Source: a bacterium (GTDB taxonomy: Bacteria; Patescibacteriota; Minisyncoccia; UBA6257; UBA9933). Taken from it: 64,000 nt of DNA. The notes beneath the pieces were generated by a model. That model was not told the DNA's origin. It saw only the letters and a list, made by a program, of their open reading frames with translations, and ran no database searches. Position 1 is the stretch's first letter, and each line of letters begins with the position of its first letter. A program made the translations under genes and the position numbers. Location: contig JAJYHZ010000001.1 of assembly GCA_021796335.1 (NCBI GenBank), positions 144,360 through 208,359 on the forward strand. Direction: 5' to 3'. Shown piece by piece: positions 25,287-36,458 of this stretch.

Positions 25287-25359
25287 TCCCCGGTAGCTCA
25301 GCTGGTAGAGCGGCTCGCTGTTAACGAGATGGTCGTAGGTTCGAATCCTACCCGGGGAG
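25287..25359 (+). tRNA. tRNA-Asn (anticodon GTT)
   Basis: Cloverleaf folded by hand: 7-bp acceptor tccccgg/ccgggga, D-arm tagctcagctggtagagc, anticodon loop cuGUUaa, T-arm gtagg-ttcgaat-cctac. No encoded CCA. Confidence 0.85.
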
Positions 25360-26821
25360 CATCTATAAAACTTAGGTCAGTTTCAGAAAAATTCAGCCGC
25401 GCTTCGCGGAGCGAAGCGTAAGGTTTTGTGGGGGTAAATTCGACACGACGGTTTTTGAGAAAGAGGTTCGAGCCGAAAATTTTTCGGAGGGAGGTCTTTT
25501 TGGCATTTATGTCGTCATTGATTGCGACTTTCGCAAGCAATGACGCGTCTTTTATCCAGTTTCGCATCGGTTCGAGCCACGGGCACTGGCCTCTTTGCGA
25601 TCTCGCCAAAACCTCCTCCAGCGATTTCTTCTCCGACATGAGGGTTTTCTTGCGGGCAAGGTAGGTGTCGTGGTCGATTTCCTGATCCACAAAGAGGTCG
25701 GTGATCCGGTCTATCTTCTGGCGTACGTCGTCGATCTTCTCCTGTAAGCCCCTGACGAGGGTTGCCATCGTGCGGGAGGCGTCTTTTTCGTCTTCGTCCG
25801 CGAGCCGCGACATCTCTCTAGCCCACGCCTCCGGCATGACGTACTGCGTGAGCAGTTCGGAGAGGTCGGCGACAAGAGTTTCTTCCCTGATATATGGTTG
25901 CGAACAGCGGGTCGCCGCTTTTTTGGTACAGCGGTAATAGATATGGCCCTTCTGTTCTTCAGCGGTGATCATGCACCCACACTCGCCGCACCGGAGCAAG
26001 CCGCATAGCGGCTTCGGTTCTTTGTCCGTCTTCTGCGGGTGTCCCCGCCTCTCGATCACGGACTGCACTTTGTCGAACAATGCCTTGCTGATGAGCGGCG
26101 TATGCCTGCCCTCGTATATCTCCCCGCCATAGCGGAAATGACCGTAGTAAAAGGGGTTGGTGAGAATGAATTTTATTTGATCTTTATGGAGCGGATTGCC
26201 GTGCCAACTTTTCACGCCGTTATCAAAGAGAAATTTGGAAATGTCTTCGTAACGAGAGTTGCCTTTGGCGTACAGCTCGATGGCGGCGATAACCGCTTTG
26301 CTTTTCTTCCGGTCAATCACGATGGTCTTCGCTCGCACGTCGTTCAGATATCCCACGGGTGCGGTTCCGGGGAATATTCCCATCCGCGCCTTCTGCCGCA
26401 GCCCTCGGCTCGTATTGGAACTAAGATCGCGGATGAACTGGTTGGCCATGCCAAACTCGACGGACATGAGAAGCACGTTGTCCGGCGGATAGTAACTCTT
26501 TTCGGGCGTGGCGATACGCTGAATAGTTCCCTGTTGGAGCAACCAGCGCACAAGTCCGTCGTCCACCGGATTTCTCGCCAGTCGATCCAGCTTCCAGCAG
26601 ATGACGCCCTGTGCCTCGCCCCGTTGGATACGGTTCATCATATCGTTGAATATCGGGCGTCCGGGCACTTTTGCCGTCCGGCTCTCGGTAAACTCGGTCA
26701 AAATCTCCAACCCTTCGCTTTTTGCAAGCGAGCGTAGTTCCTGTAACTGGCCTTCAATGGAGAGAACCTGCTTGTCCTCGACATCGGTGGATTTTCGGGC
26801 GTAGAGGAAGTAATTGGCCAT
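25298..26821 (-). CDS. Large serine recombinase A (resolvase catalytic domain + recombinase domain + zinc ribbon + coiled coil)
   Basis: YARKSTDVEDKQVLSIEGQ catalytic Ser region, CGLLRCGECGC...YYRC zinc ribbon. Start chosen at MANYFLY (26821). The reading frame runs through IR1-L and antisense through the tRNA, so the true C-terminus is uncertain. GC-rich. Confidence 0.8.
   Translation of the reverse strand: MANYFLYARKSTDVEDKQVLSIEGQLQELRSLAKSEGLEILTEFTESRTAKVPGRPIFNDMMNRIQRGEAQGVICWKLDRLARNPVDDGLVRWLLQQGTIQRIATPEKSYYPPDNVLLMSVEFGMANQFIRDLSSNTSRGLRQKARMGIFPGTAPVGYLNDVRAKTIVIDRKKSKAVIAAIELYAKGNSRYEDISKFLFDNGVKSWHGNPLHKDQIKFILTNPFYYGHFRYGGEIYEGRHTPLISKALFDKVQSVIERRGHPQKTDKEPKPLCGLLRCGECGCMITAEEQKGHIYYRCTKKAATRCSQPYIREETLVADLSELLTQYVMPEAWAREMSRLADEDEKDASRTMATLVRGLQEKIDDVRQKIDRITDLFVDQEIDHDTYLARKKTLMSEKKSLEEVLARSQRGQCPWLEPMRNWIKDASLLAKVAINDDINAKKTSLRKIFGSNLFLKNRRVEFTPTKPYASLREARLNFSETDLSFIDAPRVGFEPTTISLTASRSTS
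25357..25472. repeat. IR1-L: left copy of a 116-bp perfect inverted repeat (starts within the last 3 nt of tRNA-Asn)
   Basis: Exact reverse complement of 29518-29633 by direct comparison; contains the GC hairpin cgcttcgcgg-agcgaagcg. Confidence 0.9.
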
Positions 26822-26880
26822 AGTATTATAATATATTGTAATACTACCATATAATATAACAAGCGATATACTTGTGAGTA

Positions 26881-27087
26881 ATGGGAGTTGAAGCCTCAAA
26901 ACTCGGCAAGAATTTAAAGCGTATCAGAATCGCAAAGGGCATAACACAAGGCGATATCGTCCGCAAACTCGGCGTGGGGCGAGGATTTATAAGCAACATC
27001 GAGAACGGTAAAGCTAACCCGACGCTCACAACAATTACAAAACTAGCAAAGGCGCTCGGTGTTCCTACGGATGAACTCTTAAAATAA
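26881..27087 (+). CDS. XRE-family helix-turn-helix transcriptional regulator
   Basis: LKRIRIAKGITQGDIVRKLGVGRGFISNIENGKANPTLTTITKLAKALGV is a classic HTH_XRE; divergent from recombinase A. Confidence 0.85.
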   Translation: MGVEASKLGKNLKRIRIAKGITQGDIVRKLGVGRGFISNIENGKANPTLTTITKLAKALGVPTDELLK

Positions 27088-27089
27088 TC

Positions 27090-34208: not shown

Positions 34209-34293
34209 AAGGAAGGTTTACGCCTCAATTATACCAATTTGAGACCCCCTCCGTCCGAGGCCTTCTCGACCCGTCCGCTACCATATTTCACTG

Positions 34294-34581
34294 TTTCACC
34301 CCCACCAACGAGCCACCACAAAAGACGGACGGGAGAGAAGGCCGAGGACAATGAACGGAGCGGAGGCCAGCAGGCCGGAGCGGAGTGAAGTCGGCGTTGG
34401 ATTTCGGGTTGCGGCGATACAAGAAAGCCAATGATATTGGGACGATTTTGAGACAGGAGGGTAGTCACTCCGAAGATAGCTAGTGACTACCCAAATGAAG
34501 GGGTAAACGACCCCCTTATGCAGGGGTAAAACTCACGGATTTTCGATAAAAAACGTTCGACTGGGAGCGTGGAGATGAGCA
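34294..34581. repeat. IR2-R: right copy of the ~290-bp inverted repeat
   Basis: Reverse complement of 29629-29918. Confidence 0.85.
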
Positions 34582-36277
34582 AAGTAGGACGAACCGAGGC
34601 AAAAACCTCATTTTCGTCAGATAAATTCTTTATATTTTTAGGTTCGAACAATGAATTTATCGCCTTAGCTTGTTTTAAGCCATTAATAACGGCTGTTATT
34701 GATTTTGTGCTGATTATATCTATATTTTTGTTTTTAAAAATTAGGTTCGCACAGAGGACATATAAAGCCTCTCTTTTTTCATCATTAGTGCCATTTTTAA
34801 TAACATCTACTATTTTAGCAGCTAAAGAAAAATCTTTTTTAACTTTTTCCAAATCAAAGCGGTCATTATTTTCAGAGTTTTCTTTTTTTGTCGTTGCTAA
34901 TTCATTAATAAGTTTTTGCTCCTGATTATCAAATAATTCAATTTCTACTTGGCTTAAGTTATCTCGTCTAAGCCGTTCTTCTAATAATCTGTTTAATTTC
35001 TTTTTTATGGTAGCTTCTATATTTTCTTTGGCATTATTAATTACCTCTAAATTTTTAAGCTCGGGATCAGGTAATTCCTCAATGTGCTTTATGCACCACT
35101 CCGATAATTCATTTGAAATTTGAAGATTTTCTGTATAATAATTTACTAAGGTTTCGTCAATTTTTCTTTGTTCAAATGATTTATTTAAGCACTCTTGATG
35201 TTCGTGTTTTCGGCATTTCAATCCGCGGTAATAAACATATTCCAAATAAATTGGATTGTTCATTTCATTTATCTTGATGCCACAATTTGGGCAATTTTCC
35301 CGATTTATATAGGAAAATTTATATTTACATTGAGGGCAAATGAGTTGGAATTTAAAGTCTGGGTTGGTCAATCCTCCGCAATAACCACATTGCATAAAAT
35401 AATTATATACGCCTTTTCTCTTTTTAGGCTGAGGCCTTCCATTTTTACCCAATCTTTTTTGATTTATCCAATATTGATCTTCGGTTAGCATGCGAGTTAA
35501 TTTTAGATTTAATTCGTATCTTTCGCCTCCTTGATAAAAAAATCCGGTATATAGCGGATCGGCTAACATTGAGTATAAATAAGATAAAGAAATAGGTTTG
35601 CCTCCTTCGCGCTTTCTTTCAGGAGTAGTCAAATGTAATTCATTTTTAGCATATAGCCATAATTGGCGAACGGAATATTTATTGGTTGCAAAACGATCAA
35701 ATATGGCCTTAACTAATGGCCATCGTTGCGGATCATCACACCAAGTCCTATTTCCTTTTTCTTCGGTTTTATCATTTAAGTATCCGATTTTAGCCAAACC
35801 ACTCGGATAGCCCATTGTCGCTTTTTTTCTTAACCCGCGTTTTACATCAACTCCTTTATTATCATTTTCTAATTTTGCCTGACTGCAAAATAAATTAAGT
35901 AAAAATTTATCATTTGGATTATCCTTAAATATTTGCGATGGAGTTCTAACCTCAACAAGTTTTCCTAAATCCATTAAGTAAATAACTCTACCTGTATCTA
36001 TTGAATTTCTGGAGATTCTATTGGGATTCCAAACTAAAATTCCATTAGCCTTGCCTTTTTCAATATCCGCAAGCATTCTATCAAATATAGGTCTTCCCGG
36101 ATGTTTGGCGCTTTTTGATTCTTCTAAAATTTCAATAATCTCTAAATTATTAATTTGTGCAGTTTTTTTATTTTCATCTATTTGAGAAGAAATTGATAAG
36201 GCTTGCCGATCTTCCGCTTCGCTTGATTTTCTACAATAAATAAAATATTTAATTTTTGGCTGATTAATTTGATTCAT
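34487..36277 (-). CDS. Large serine recombinase B (paralogue of recombinase A)
   Basis: YCRKSSEAEDRQALSISSQ catalytic region, recombinase domain, Cys-rich zinc ribbon (CGYCGG...CPQC...CPNC) and a C-terminal coiled coil; AT-rich like the host. The last ~30 codons lie inside IR2-R. Confidence 0.85.
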   Translation of the reverse strand: MNQINQPKIKYFIYCRKSSEAEDRQALSISSQIDENKKTAQINNLEIIEILEESKSAKHPGRPIFDRMLADIEKGKANGILVWNPNRISRNSIDTGRVIYLMDLGKLVEVRTPSQIFKDNPNDKFLLNLFCSQAKLENDNKGVDVKRGLRKKATMGYPSGLAKIGYLNDKTEEKGNRTWCDDPQRWPLVKAIFDRFATNKYSVRQLWLYAKNELHLTTPERKREGGKPISLSYLYSMLADPLYTGFFYQGGERYELNLKLTRMLTEDQYWINQKRLGKNGRPQPKKRKGVYNYFMQCGYCGGLTNPDFKFQLICPQCKYKFSYINRENCPNCGIKINEMNNPIYLEYVYYRGLKCRKHEHQECLNKSFEQRKIDETLVNYYTENLQISNELSEWCIKHIEELPDPELKNLEVINNAKENIEATIKKKLNRLLEERLRRDNLSQVEIELFDNQEQKLINELATTKKENSENNDRFDLEKVKKDFSLAAKIVDVIKNGTNDEKREALYVLCANLIFKNKNIDIISTKSITAVINGLKQAKAINSLFEPKNIKNLSDENEVFASVRPTLLISTLPVERFLSKIREFYPCIRGSFTPSFG

Positions 36278-36458
36278 TTCTTTTTTTATTTTGCTTAAGA
36301 AATTTATCTAATTCTTCTTGTGAAATTCTCCATAAAGAAGTTCGTCCTTTGCCAAGTTTATATCCTTTTAATTCGCTGCTTACCAGCCACCTTTCAATAG
36401 TTCTGGGATGAACTCTTAAAAGCTCAGCAACCTCTTGTCTTGTTAGTAATTTTTTCAT
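36264..36458 (-). CDS. Excisionase/MerR-like HTH DNA-binding protein
   Basis: LTRQEVAELLRVHPRTIERW, an excisionase-family HTH; 64 aa; overlaps the recombinase B start. Confidence 0.65.
   Translation of the reverse strand: MKKLLTRQEVAELLRVHPRTIERWLVSSELKGYKLGKGRTSLWRISQEELDKFLKQNKKRNESN

Follow-up and report, generated by a model that had tools for sequence, protein, structure and literature searches.

A putative integrative element with abutting inverted repeats and an internal attachment-site-like junction at a tRNA-Asn gene of a Patescibacteria genome

The 64-kb stretch of a Patescibacteria genome analysed here (assembly GCA_021796335.1, contig JAJYHZ010000001.1, positions 144,360 to 208,359; hereafter the window) contains at the 3' end of a tRNA-Asn gene two abutting cassettes, each bounded by a pair of long inverted repeats (IR1 and IR2), and two large serine recombinase genes that we call recA and recB (recA is here the gene of recombinase A and must not be confused with RecA of homologous recombination). 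This anatomy had been described in an earlier note made from the letters alone, and the repeat finder, ARAGORN and Pfam agreed with it base for base. The note considered IR1 and IR2 as two separate invertons. We have reinterpreted them as the two arms, a and b, of one attachment site, since the junctions T/a, a'/b and b'/R (T being the tRNA side and R the recB side) share the pentamer GAGCA. With moderate confidence, we read positions 25362-34581 (9220 bp) as a single integrative element driven by recA and containing an internal inverted copy of its own attachment site (attP). Full-text literature searches gave no description of such a layout, as the note had supposed, and the element apparently belongs to an undescribed recurrent class of mobile islands in Patescibacteria. 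The features involved are the following.

25287-25360, + strand: tRNA-Asn(GTT) (ARAGORN; Rfam RF00005, 68 bits), the integration target
25357-25361, + strand: core GAGCA of junction J1 (T/a), located by sequence at the tRNA 3' end and interpreted as attL
25357-25472: IR1-L, the proximal a arm (repeat finder), interpreted as the P' arm of attP
25298-26821, - strand: recA, large serine recombinase of 507 amino acids (aa) (Pfam PF00239, PF07508 and PF13408: Resolvase, Recombinase and Zn_ribbon_recom)
29519-29634: IR1-R, the distal a arm, which repeats the recA 3' end in inverted, non-coding form
29519-29918: intact inverted attP-like junction a'/b, with the core TGCTC at 29630-29634
29630-29918: IR2-L, the near b arm (repeat finder), interpreted as the P arm
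34294-34581: IR2-R, the far b arm (repeat finder)
34577-34581, + strand: core GAGCA of junction J3 (b'/R), interpreted as attR
34487-36277, - strand: recB, large serine recombinase of 596 aa (Pfam)
36264-36458, - strand: Xis-like HTH_17 protein (Pfam)

The two IR1 arms are 116 nt long each and 100% complementary according to the repeat finder. The IR2 pair was reported as two blocks, one of 232 nt at 99% identity and one of 58 nt at 100%, and between its arms there are three mismatches and one indel, grouped ~209-232 nt from the outer end. The final bases of the tRNA (GAGC, 25357-25360) double as the start of IR1-L, and IR1-R and IR2-L overlap by the five nucleotides TGCTC (29630-29634). The same pentamer at the three boundaries J1, J2 and J3, already seen in the earlier note, could be confirmed as GAGCA in the orientations +, - and +. 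The reverse complement of a'/b, i.e. b'/a, equals exactly the joint that is obtained by connecting the two element ends, 34581 to 25362. No further copies of the repeats were found in the 64-kb window beyond this locus, and in the relatives described below they are always tied to the 3' end of the recombinase gene. A miniature inverted-repeat transposable element, which the note had named as something that would refute its reading, or an insertion sequence with terminal inverted repeats can thus be discarded, the boundary pentamers being moreover inverted and not direct. No Rfam family was found inside the arms (the only matches were the tRNA and an unrelated LOOT RNA), and a promoter scan of arm b gave no convincing promoter.

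The exchange that we propose would be T/R x b'/a, giving T/a and b'/R. In the circular form of the element attP would be b'/a, and recA would recombine it with the extreme 3' end of the tRNA at a 4-5-nt core. The products would here be attL, formed by tRNA-Asn and a, and attR, formed by b' and the flank. The flank is here the recB 3' end, since tRNA-Asn would have been occupied beforehand by an unrelated island of the recB type. The empty site would then read tRNA-Asn GAGCA AAGTAGGACG... One copy of the attachment site would have been split by the insertion at the tRNA, and a second one would lie intact and inverted at 29519-29918, separating module A (recombinase and restriction-modification) from module B (protease, membrane proteins and Replic_Relax). 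The appearance of IR1 and IR2 follows from this, since opposite either half of the split site there is an inverted copy identical to it. Recombination within an arm pair, be it catalysed by the recombinase at the cores or homologous along the arms, would invert either module while keeping the arms identical, and would also permit module exchange between elements. We infer that the crossover lies at the shared core, that the flipping is due to recA and not to RecA, and that the present copy may still be active.

The resolvase domain PF00239 was detected in recA with E=3e-18, the serine-nucleophile motif FLYARKST is invariant among 13 family members, and the PDB matches of the protein include SprA of SPbeta and the A118 integrase. 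In recB the same domain was found with E=4e-22, together with weak matches to PF07508 and DZR_2; the protein is of the same length class as recA and 26% identical to it. Judging from their sequences, both are bona fide large serine recombinases. The recA clade is at most 33% identical to the phage and plasmid integrases searched (top plasmid 33%, top phage ~28%), and neither a single-protein nor an alignment query found recA relatives among the IMG/VR viral contigs. As the note had pointed out, both recombinase ORFs (open reading frames) continue through an IR arm. IR1-L encodes the final 38 native codons of recA, followed by 20 last codons (25298-25356) that are simply the antisense of the tRNA, and the recB ORF takes its 31 final codons from IR2-R. 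Within the recA cluster (at least 90% identity) the body is common and the tails split after ...SFI(A/D)A, being the antisense of varied tRNAs, e.g. PRPGLEPGT... or GPGFEPR..., in all members other than P0005 and P0010. If recA were read from a' into b it would end in the tail ...SFIDAHLHAPSRTFFIENP. The predicted b-derived tail type, AHLHAPSRTFF(T/I)ENP, is present in the proteins P0005 (...AAHLHAPSRTFFTENP) and P0010, and b-derived recombinase tails were also found in loci L044, L122 and L062. The exact predicted proteins, recA ending in ...FIENP and recB ending in ...PTLLPG, are absent from a collection of 15 billion proteins. The annotated C-termini of recA and recB are junction artefacts made of tRNA antisense or repeat arms.

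Scans with recA retrieved 160 loci with 39-94% amino-acid identity, nearly all of them in Patescibacteria metagenome-assembled genomes (MAGs). The 3' end of the recombinase gene runs into a tRNA gene at 87 of the 102 non-redundant, resolved junctions, most frequently tRNA-Gln (35) and tRNA-Asn (16, and 11 more whose anticodon loop holds an insertion), followed by Gly (7), Thr (5) and others. An inverted repeat with one arm over the recombinase 3' end, equivalent to IR1, was present in 48 of 55 loci having at least 4 kb of upstream sequence. At least nine of these loci also have an abutting IR2. A second pair that abuts the first by 3-5 nt was found in L006/L008, L028, L038, L061, L093 and L097, and also in L100, L111, L115, L124 and L080. 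Where both modules occur their order is constant, flank/b-B-b'/a-A-a'/tRNA. The distal a arm is invariably followed by a conserved start of b (in one subfamily ACATTATACGACCAAGTTCGAACC; the window has ATCTCCACGCTCCCAGTCGAACG), which co-varies with the recombinase subfamily across tRNA types and hosts. Arm b belongs therefore to the recA-type element, and the possibility that its start is host sequence found downstream of tRNAs is refuted by the same co-variation. The layout is not tied to a particular cargo. The repeats of L006 are 88-91% identical to those of the window and enclose different genes, Mrr in module A and a SinI restriction-modification system, an M78 peptidase and Replic_Relax in module B. 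Other relatives also carry defence-like cargo, such as type III restriction-modification, a Schlafen-domain protein or an Abi protein.

The simplest member of the family, L037, measures only 1.66 kb and has no inverted repeat. It reads flank/GGCT/b(190 nt)-rec-a'/GGCT/tRNA-Gln, with arm b upstream of the recombinase and arm a formed by the last ~110 nt of the recombinase gene, so that the termini of the family are b and a' and attP is a'/b. The distance between the core and a T-loop-like hexamer, TCGAAC with variants, is 13 nt towards the tRNA and 17 nt towards b, and this shift of +4 was seen in 43 of 50 loci; in IR2-L of the window TCGAAC also lies 17 nt from the core. The other half of the target, that is the flank, is not conserved among loci. 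A palindromic crossover dinucleotide, which would permit insertion in both orientations, was discarded as a general rule, since it is lacking in the cores of some subfamilies (GGAG, GGTG and TGAG). In the A118/LI integrase structure and the model of its complex with attP, the zinc-ribbon domain binds several bp further out on attP than on attB half-sites. By analogy, the shift would fit this model if T were a B-type and b a P-type half-site.

The anatomy by itself could also suggest two independent invertons, each with its own adjacent large serine recombinase and acting as a phase-variation switch, which is how the earlier note had paired cassettes and enzymes. There are indeed two recombinases whose ORFs enter an IR arm, the cores are inverted within each pair, and the relatives include orientation isomers. 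Against this, b co-varies with recA, and in eight two-cassette relatives the far b arm adjoins unrelated DNA without a serine recombinase, so IR2 exists there without a second enzyme. Furthermore, native recB stops before the repeat. Its homologues (at most 48% identical, 565-580 aa) share ...EVFASV(R/I)PTLL and then diverge, and several end in PTLLRG followed by a stop, where RG and the stop are the antisense of the tRNA-Asn 3' end; without the insert the recB of the window would end in ...PTLLPG and a stop at 569 aa. An inverted partner arm for recB was looked for and not found. In addition, as the arms are identical, neither inversion would change promoter-gene or gene-gene joins, and the window locus has been seen in one orientation only. 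We regard two invertons as very improbable. The inversion of cassettes that the note had proposed is nevertheless plausible, given the isomers and homogenised arms of the relatives, even though at the window locus a single orientation has been seen.

To quantify the homogenisation we have compared the outer 100 nt of the a arms in 72 pairs. The two arms of one locus have a median identity of 99%, with 30 of the 72 pairs perfect and 57 at 97% or more, versus a median of only 62% for proximal arms between loci. In 66 of the 72 loci no distal arm from elsewhere matches the local distal arm better than its own proximal partner does. Arms that belong to one locus evolve in concert. In several subfamilies the distal arm has a conserved ~10-nt insertion at GGTTC^GAGCC (FGSN codons), and the inner end of IR1 in the window is found at this motif (GGTTCGAG). 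Since the insertion point coincides with the end of IR1, the homogenised unit appears to be the outer ~110 nt. The insertion (AAGAATTCAA-like) splits the motif GGTTCGAGCC in L011, L017, L028 (~9083-9093), L035, L061 and L124, and it is confined to the non-coding distal arm despite a near-perfect homogenisation on either side.

Orientation isomers were found among the relatives, in different samples. In L005, which is 91-94% identical in nucleotides to the window, the recA body leads through the 116-bp arm into the near-b side, indicating that module A is inverted there, and the assembly is unambiguous since the arm is shorter than the reads. The 2636-bp contig L044 reads rec->a'/b-Replic_Relax->, which is either the predicted joint of the element ends or a double module flip. 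Its Replic_Relax gene and b arm are close to those of the window (33342-34581), with 89% amino-acid identity for the Replic_Relax protein versus only 61% for the recombinase, and these identities indicate a probable module exchange between recombinase lineages. The arrangement rec->a'/b was also found in L122, L062, L046 and L047/L139; in L046 and L047/L139 module A is flanked by b on both sides and there is no tRNA. In L030 module B is inverted with respect to L028, L029 and L097 at 100% identity. Other inversion pairs were searched at 95% identity or more, and L030 was the only one in 35 comparable pairs, a comparison of low power.

A number of observations weigh against a recA-driven element with two copies of attP. 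Arm a does not have the TCGAAC motif and the two proposed attP half-sites are dissimilar. To our knowledge, recombination of attP with attL or attR is not among the reactions of canonical serine integrases, and flipping driven by the recombinase would therefore need a non-canonical behaviour. Flipping looks besides functionally silent, because identical arms face the modules in either orientation, and no selective reason for the layout is evident. The inverted repeat of L030 is a perfect one of 241 bp, which short-read assemblers may orient arbitrarily. Neither an excised circle nor an empty site nor an alternative orientation of the window element was found in three other assemblies and the 15-billion-protein collection. 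Finally, of the relatives with 8 kb or more upstream, about half have IR1 and the start of b with no detectable far b arm, which leaves their far end undefined and means that two attP copies are not universal. In L028 three IR cassettes abut one another, and in L084 the far b arm abuts another a' arm. The strict model of a circle with precisely two attP in each element is weakened by these three cases, and L028 and L084 are explained equally well by a looser array of cassettes.

Such an array would consist of independent mobile cassettes with palindromic attachment sites (a-A-a', b-B-b' and, in relatives, c-C-c'), inserted serially at one core beside the tRNA and reshuffled as in shufflons or integrons. 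The third IR pair of L028 has its own small serine recombinase, other combinations of neighbours exist in L084, L046 and L047, and solo a arms of ~110 nt survive as relics. The case of L044, which shares module B with the window at 89% aa identity despite only 61% between the recombinases, would also suit it. Against independent cassettes, the joints a'/a and b'/b and a b'/tRNA junction were not found in ~160 loci. No recombinase is encoded in module B, arm b co-varies with recA, L037 as the minimal element ends in one b and one a' instead of two identical arms, and the order of modules is constant. We consider the array unlikely. The third cassette of L028 (777-2348) has 149-nt arms, 99% identical, and abuts the far b arm; its recombinase-like protein is 28% identical to residues 1-255 of recA.

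The repeats might instead be passive. A single inversion across the central junction of ancestral tandem elements would leave inherited scars, with no site-specific flipping and no function, whose identity is kept by ordinary RecA-mediated gene conversion. By reasoning, inverting the centre of a direct tandem gives the layout exactly. The ~10-nt insertion of the distal arms is conserved and ancient, flipping seems silent, and three element layers show tandem accretion at this tRNA-Asn (see below). What such a relic does not account for is the persistence of the layout, kept in 48 of 55 loci among recombinases only 50-60% identical and with unrelated cargo, with IR boundaries that match the core to the base in every lineage, since a neutral scar should decay or be deleted. 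A passive relic is in our opinion decidedly unlikely. Going in the opposite direction, the internal inverted attP could be a functional design by which the integrase flips modules and swaps IR-flanked cargo between elements, with an excised circle of the 2-micron type. We find this doubtful. If true, it would resemble engineered recombinase-mediated cassette exchange and would imply new serine-integrase reactions (attP with attL or attR, with a tRNA-mimic arm as guide), and very small genomes would have a new route to shuffle defence cargo.

A misjoin at 29629-29633, or a collapse of the repeats, was also considered, and contigs of two other assemblies stop inside IR2 as repeats would cause. 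We regard an artefact or chimera as hardly conceivable. A MEGAHIT k141 contig from another sample (L001) matches the window from 15298 to 29770 at 100% identity, passing both 116-bp IR1 arms and the 29629-29634 joint, and ends exactly 141 nt inside IR2-L, as expected of a de Bruijn unitig at a repeat. In a third sample (L003) a single contig contains recB-IR2R-module B-IR2L, again with a 100% match and guided by arm-specific single-nucleotide differences; the contig of an NCBI MAG (L002) terminates within IR2-R. The long-read complete chromosome OY970354.1 (L093) has the same two abutting IR pairs, and the layout recurs in dozens of unrelated assemblies. The independent contigs, identical across the joint, and this long-read relative rule out a misassembly at the joint, one of the possibilities raised in the note. 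IR-rich islands like that of the window break short-read assemblies.

The locus was horizontally acquired, as the note had held, and its composition is layered. The cassettes have 41-51% GC, above the 36-41% of the left host flank, in agreement with the note. The recB side, which it had considered AT-rich like the host, has only 21-33% and, being more AT-rich than the host, is foreign DNA too. The homologue tails read from the tRNA-Asn antisense indicate that a recB-type island was at tRNA-Asn before the composite inserted. We interpret recB and the HTH_17 gene as the end of this island that is nearest to the tRNA, outside the IR element. The locus L168, from another metagenome, has the same R'/b junction, with b 88% identical, beside a recB relative of 48% identity. 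Two further features belong to older layers.

34582-42440: probable extent of the resident recB-type island, 21-33% GC, with the right end inferred from a b-like terminus at ~42415-42440
42441-42560, - strand: solo arm of a recA-family 3' end, ~110 nt (…ASRSARVNFPEKGLSCVLA), with core GGCT

The solo arm abuts a b-like start with TTAGAAC at +17 (window 42415-42560). It is probably the junction of the recB-type island with an older decayed element, and so read it implies three layers of accretion at one tRNA. The island also contains a trypsin-like protease (40923-42029), an ORF similar to a small terminase (42026-42406, PF03592) and several ORFans, and resembles a phage satellite or a prophage remnant. 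A LOOT RNA (RF03000, 37788-37907, + strand) was detected at full length with 84.6 bits against a gathering score of 46.4, overlapping a mechanical ORF of 56 aa inside this AT-rich region.

The cargo of the two modules of the element is as follows.

26881-27087, + strand: C-protein of the XRE type, module A (Pfam; PADLOC Control_protein)
27090-28268, + strand: EcoRI-like type II methyltransferase, module A (Pfam; PADLOC MTase_II, 352 bits)
28265-29428, + strand: DUF262/GmrSD_N endonuclease with HNH domain, module A (Pfam; PADLOC REase_II, 275 bits)
29971-34208, - strand: cargo of module B, seven ORFs (Pfam)
30570-31595, - strand: ClpP-like SDH protease, module B (Pfam)
33342-34208, - strand: Replic_Relax protein, module B (Pfam)

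The DUF262/GmrSD_N-HNH protein matches the PADLOC REase_II model over its full length, and the three genes of module A (26881-29428, + strand) are by these matches a complete type II restriction-modification operon. Module B codes for a 202-aa protein, the SDH protease, four small and mostly hydrophobic proteins and Replic_Relax; PADLOC gave no matches in it. No recombination directionality factor could be identified in modules A and B, the HTH_17 protein being found only beside recB.

Among known systems, the serine-integrase elements (phiC31, Bxb1, A118/LI, TP901-1, SPbeta SprA, SCCmec Ccr, Tn4451 TnpX and Tn5397 TndX) are similar in several respects. Like recA, their enzymes have resolvase, recombinase and zinc-ribbon domains, the gene lies at the element end by the attachment site, and exchange takes place at a short core without long identity of attP and attB, with a recognition motif shifted outward on the attP-type half-site. 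The 5-nt core of J1-J3 and the end joint that equals the reverse complement of the internal junction agree with this class. Unlike in these elements, the crossover would be here inside the last codons of recA and the last bases of the tRNA gene. The tRNA is besides the sole conserved half-site of the target, the arms measure 110-290 bp and there is an internal inverted attP. The invertases Hin, Gin, Cin and Pin also act on an IR-bounded segment with crossover at its outer edges and with a serine recombinase gene in or beside it, and the C segment of phage P1 has 0.6-kb inverted repeats with crossover sites at the outer ends. However, those enzymes have ~190 aa with a C-terminal helix-turn-helix and need an enhancer and Fis. 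The 507- and 596-aa integrase-type proteins found here refute a Hin/Gin-type system. Besides, Hin-type inversion swaps gene ends or promoters, whereas here the arrangement is symmetric and only the recombinase's own tail is affected.

The yeast 2-micron plasmid (Flp/FRT, 599-bp inverted repeats) offers a similar geometry. The circle predicted here would also have two unique segments and two inverted 401-bp repeats with a central site, one segment encoding the recombinase and the other a replication-related protein. The likeness, as that to the Gin/Cin segments, is one of geometry only, for a circular form predicted from sequence: Flp is a tyrosine recombinase of a eukaryotic plasmid, and here only a few relatives have Replic_Relax. 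Islands of tyrosine integrases that target tRNA genes likewise use the tRNA 3' end, carry defence cargo and stack, as the three layers do here. They differ in generating a direct repeat of the tRNA 3' half, when here only 4-5 nt are shared, the repeats are inverted and the enzyme is of the serine type; the absence of a tyrosine recombinase, with only GAGCA repeated, excludes this class. In the immunity systems of the mycobacteriophages BPs and Brujita integration also alters the C-terminus of an element-encoded protein, attP lying within the gene. Here the gene would be the recombinase itself and its tails vary with the tRNA that has been hit, making a regulatory role of the swapped tails unlikely. 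The R64 shufflon (Rci) was rejected as well, the enzyme being here a serine and not a tyrosine recombinase and the locus having no alternative gene ends other than the short tail of the recombinase.

The mobile elements of Patescibacteria are poorly known, and the window locus, with hundreds of relatives in the survey, stands for a recurrent class of islands that carry defence cargo (restriction-modification, Abi, Mrr and similar). As a natural replicate dataset on target recognition by serine integrases, with one conserved half-site and a T-loop motif that moves from +13 (target) to +17 (element), the family could help to design or reprogram integrases. If the inverted internal site were functional, it would be a natural case of module flipping or exchange driven by an integrase.

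In each a arm there is a GC hairpin, GCGCTTCGCGGAGCGAAGCG (25399-25419 and 29572-29592), with a terminator-like score on both strands, which could insulate module A from read-through of the tRNA. Its T-runs are not kept in other subfamilies, where the hairpin codes for A-L-R-x-A-R. The left host flank contains a short alanyl-tRNA synthetase of 640 aa (22538-24460) and a 238-aa protein with a weak match to a proteasome subunit (24462-25178), genes that are consistent with the reduced genome of a Patescibacteria.

An insertion that contains the conserved motif GGACTAT(A/C) interrupts, past the anticodon, the target tRNA-Asn genes downstream of the recombinase in L006/L007/L008, L012, L014, L042, L059, L117, L120, L125, L160 and L161. 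An interruption is also seen in L069 and L162, and some tRNA-Met genes are apparently interrupted likewise. ARAGORN misses these interrupted target tRNAs. Group I introns in tRNA-Asn genes of Patescibacteria have been reported (PMC13011429), and the insertions fit them, with no Rfam intron match at the gathering threshold in L006. In L050, L051 and L052 the element is bordered, just downstream of the recombinase, by a tRNA-Gln truncated to a 3' fragment, then come an arm-like remnant of ~30 nt and a complete tRNA-Gln, an arrangement that suggests repeated insertion and decay.

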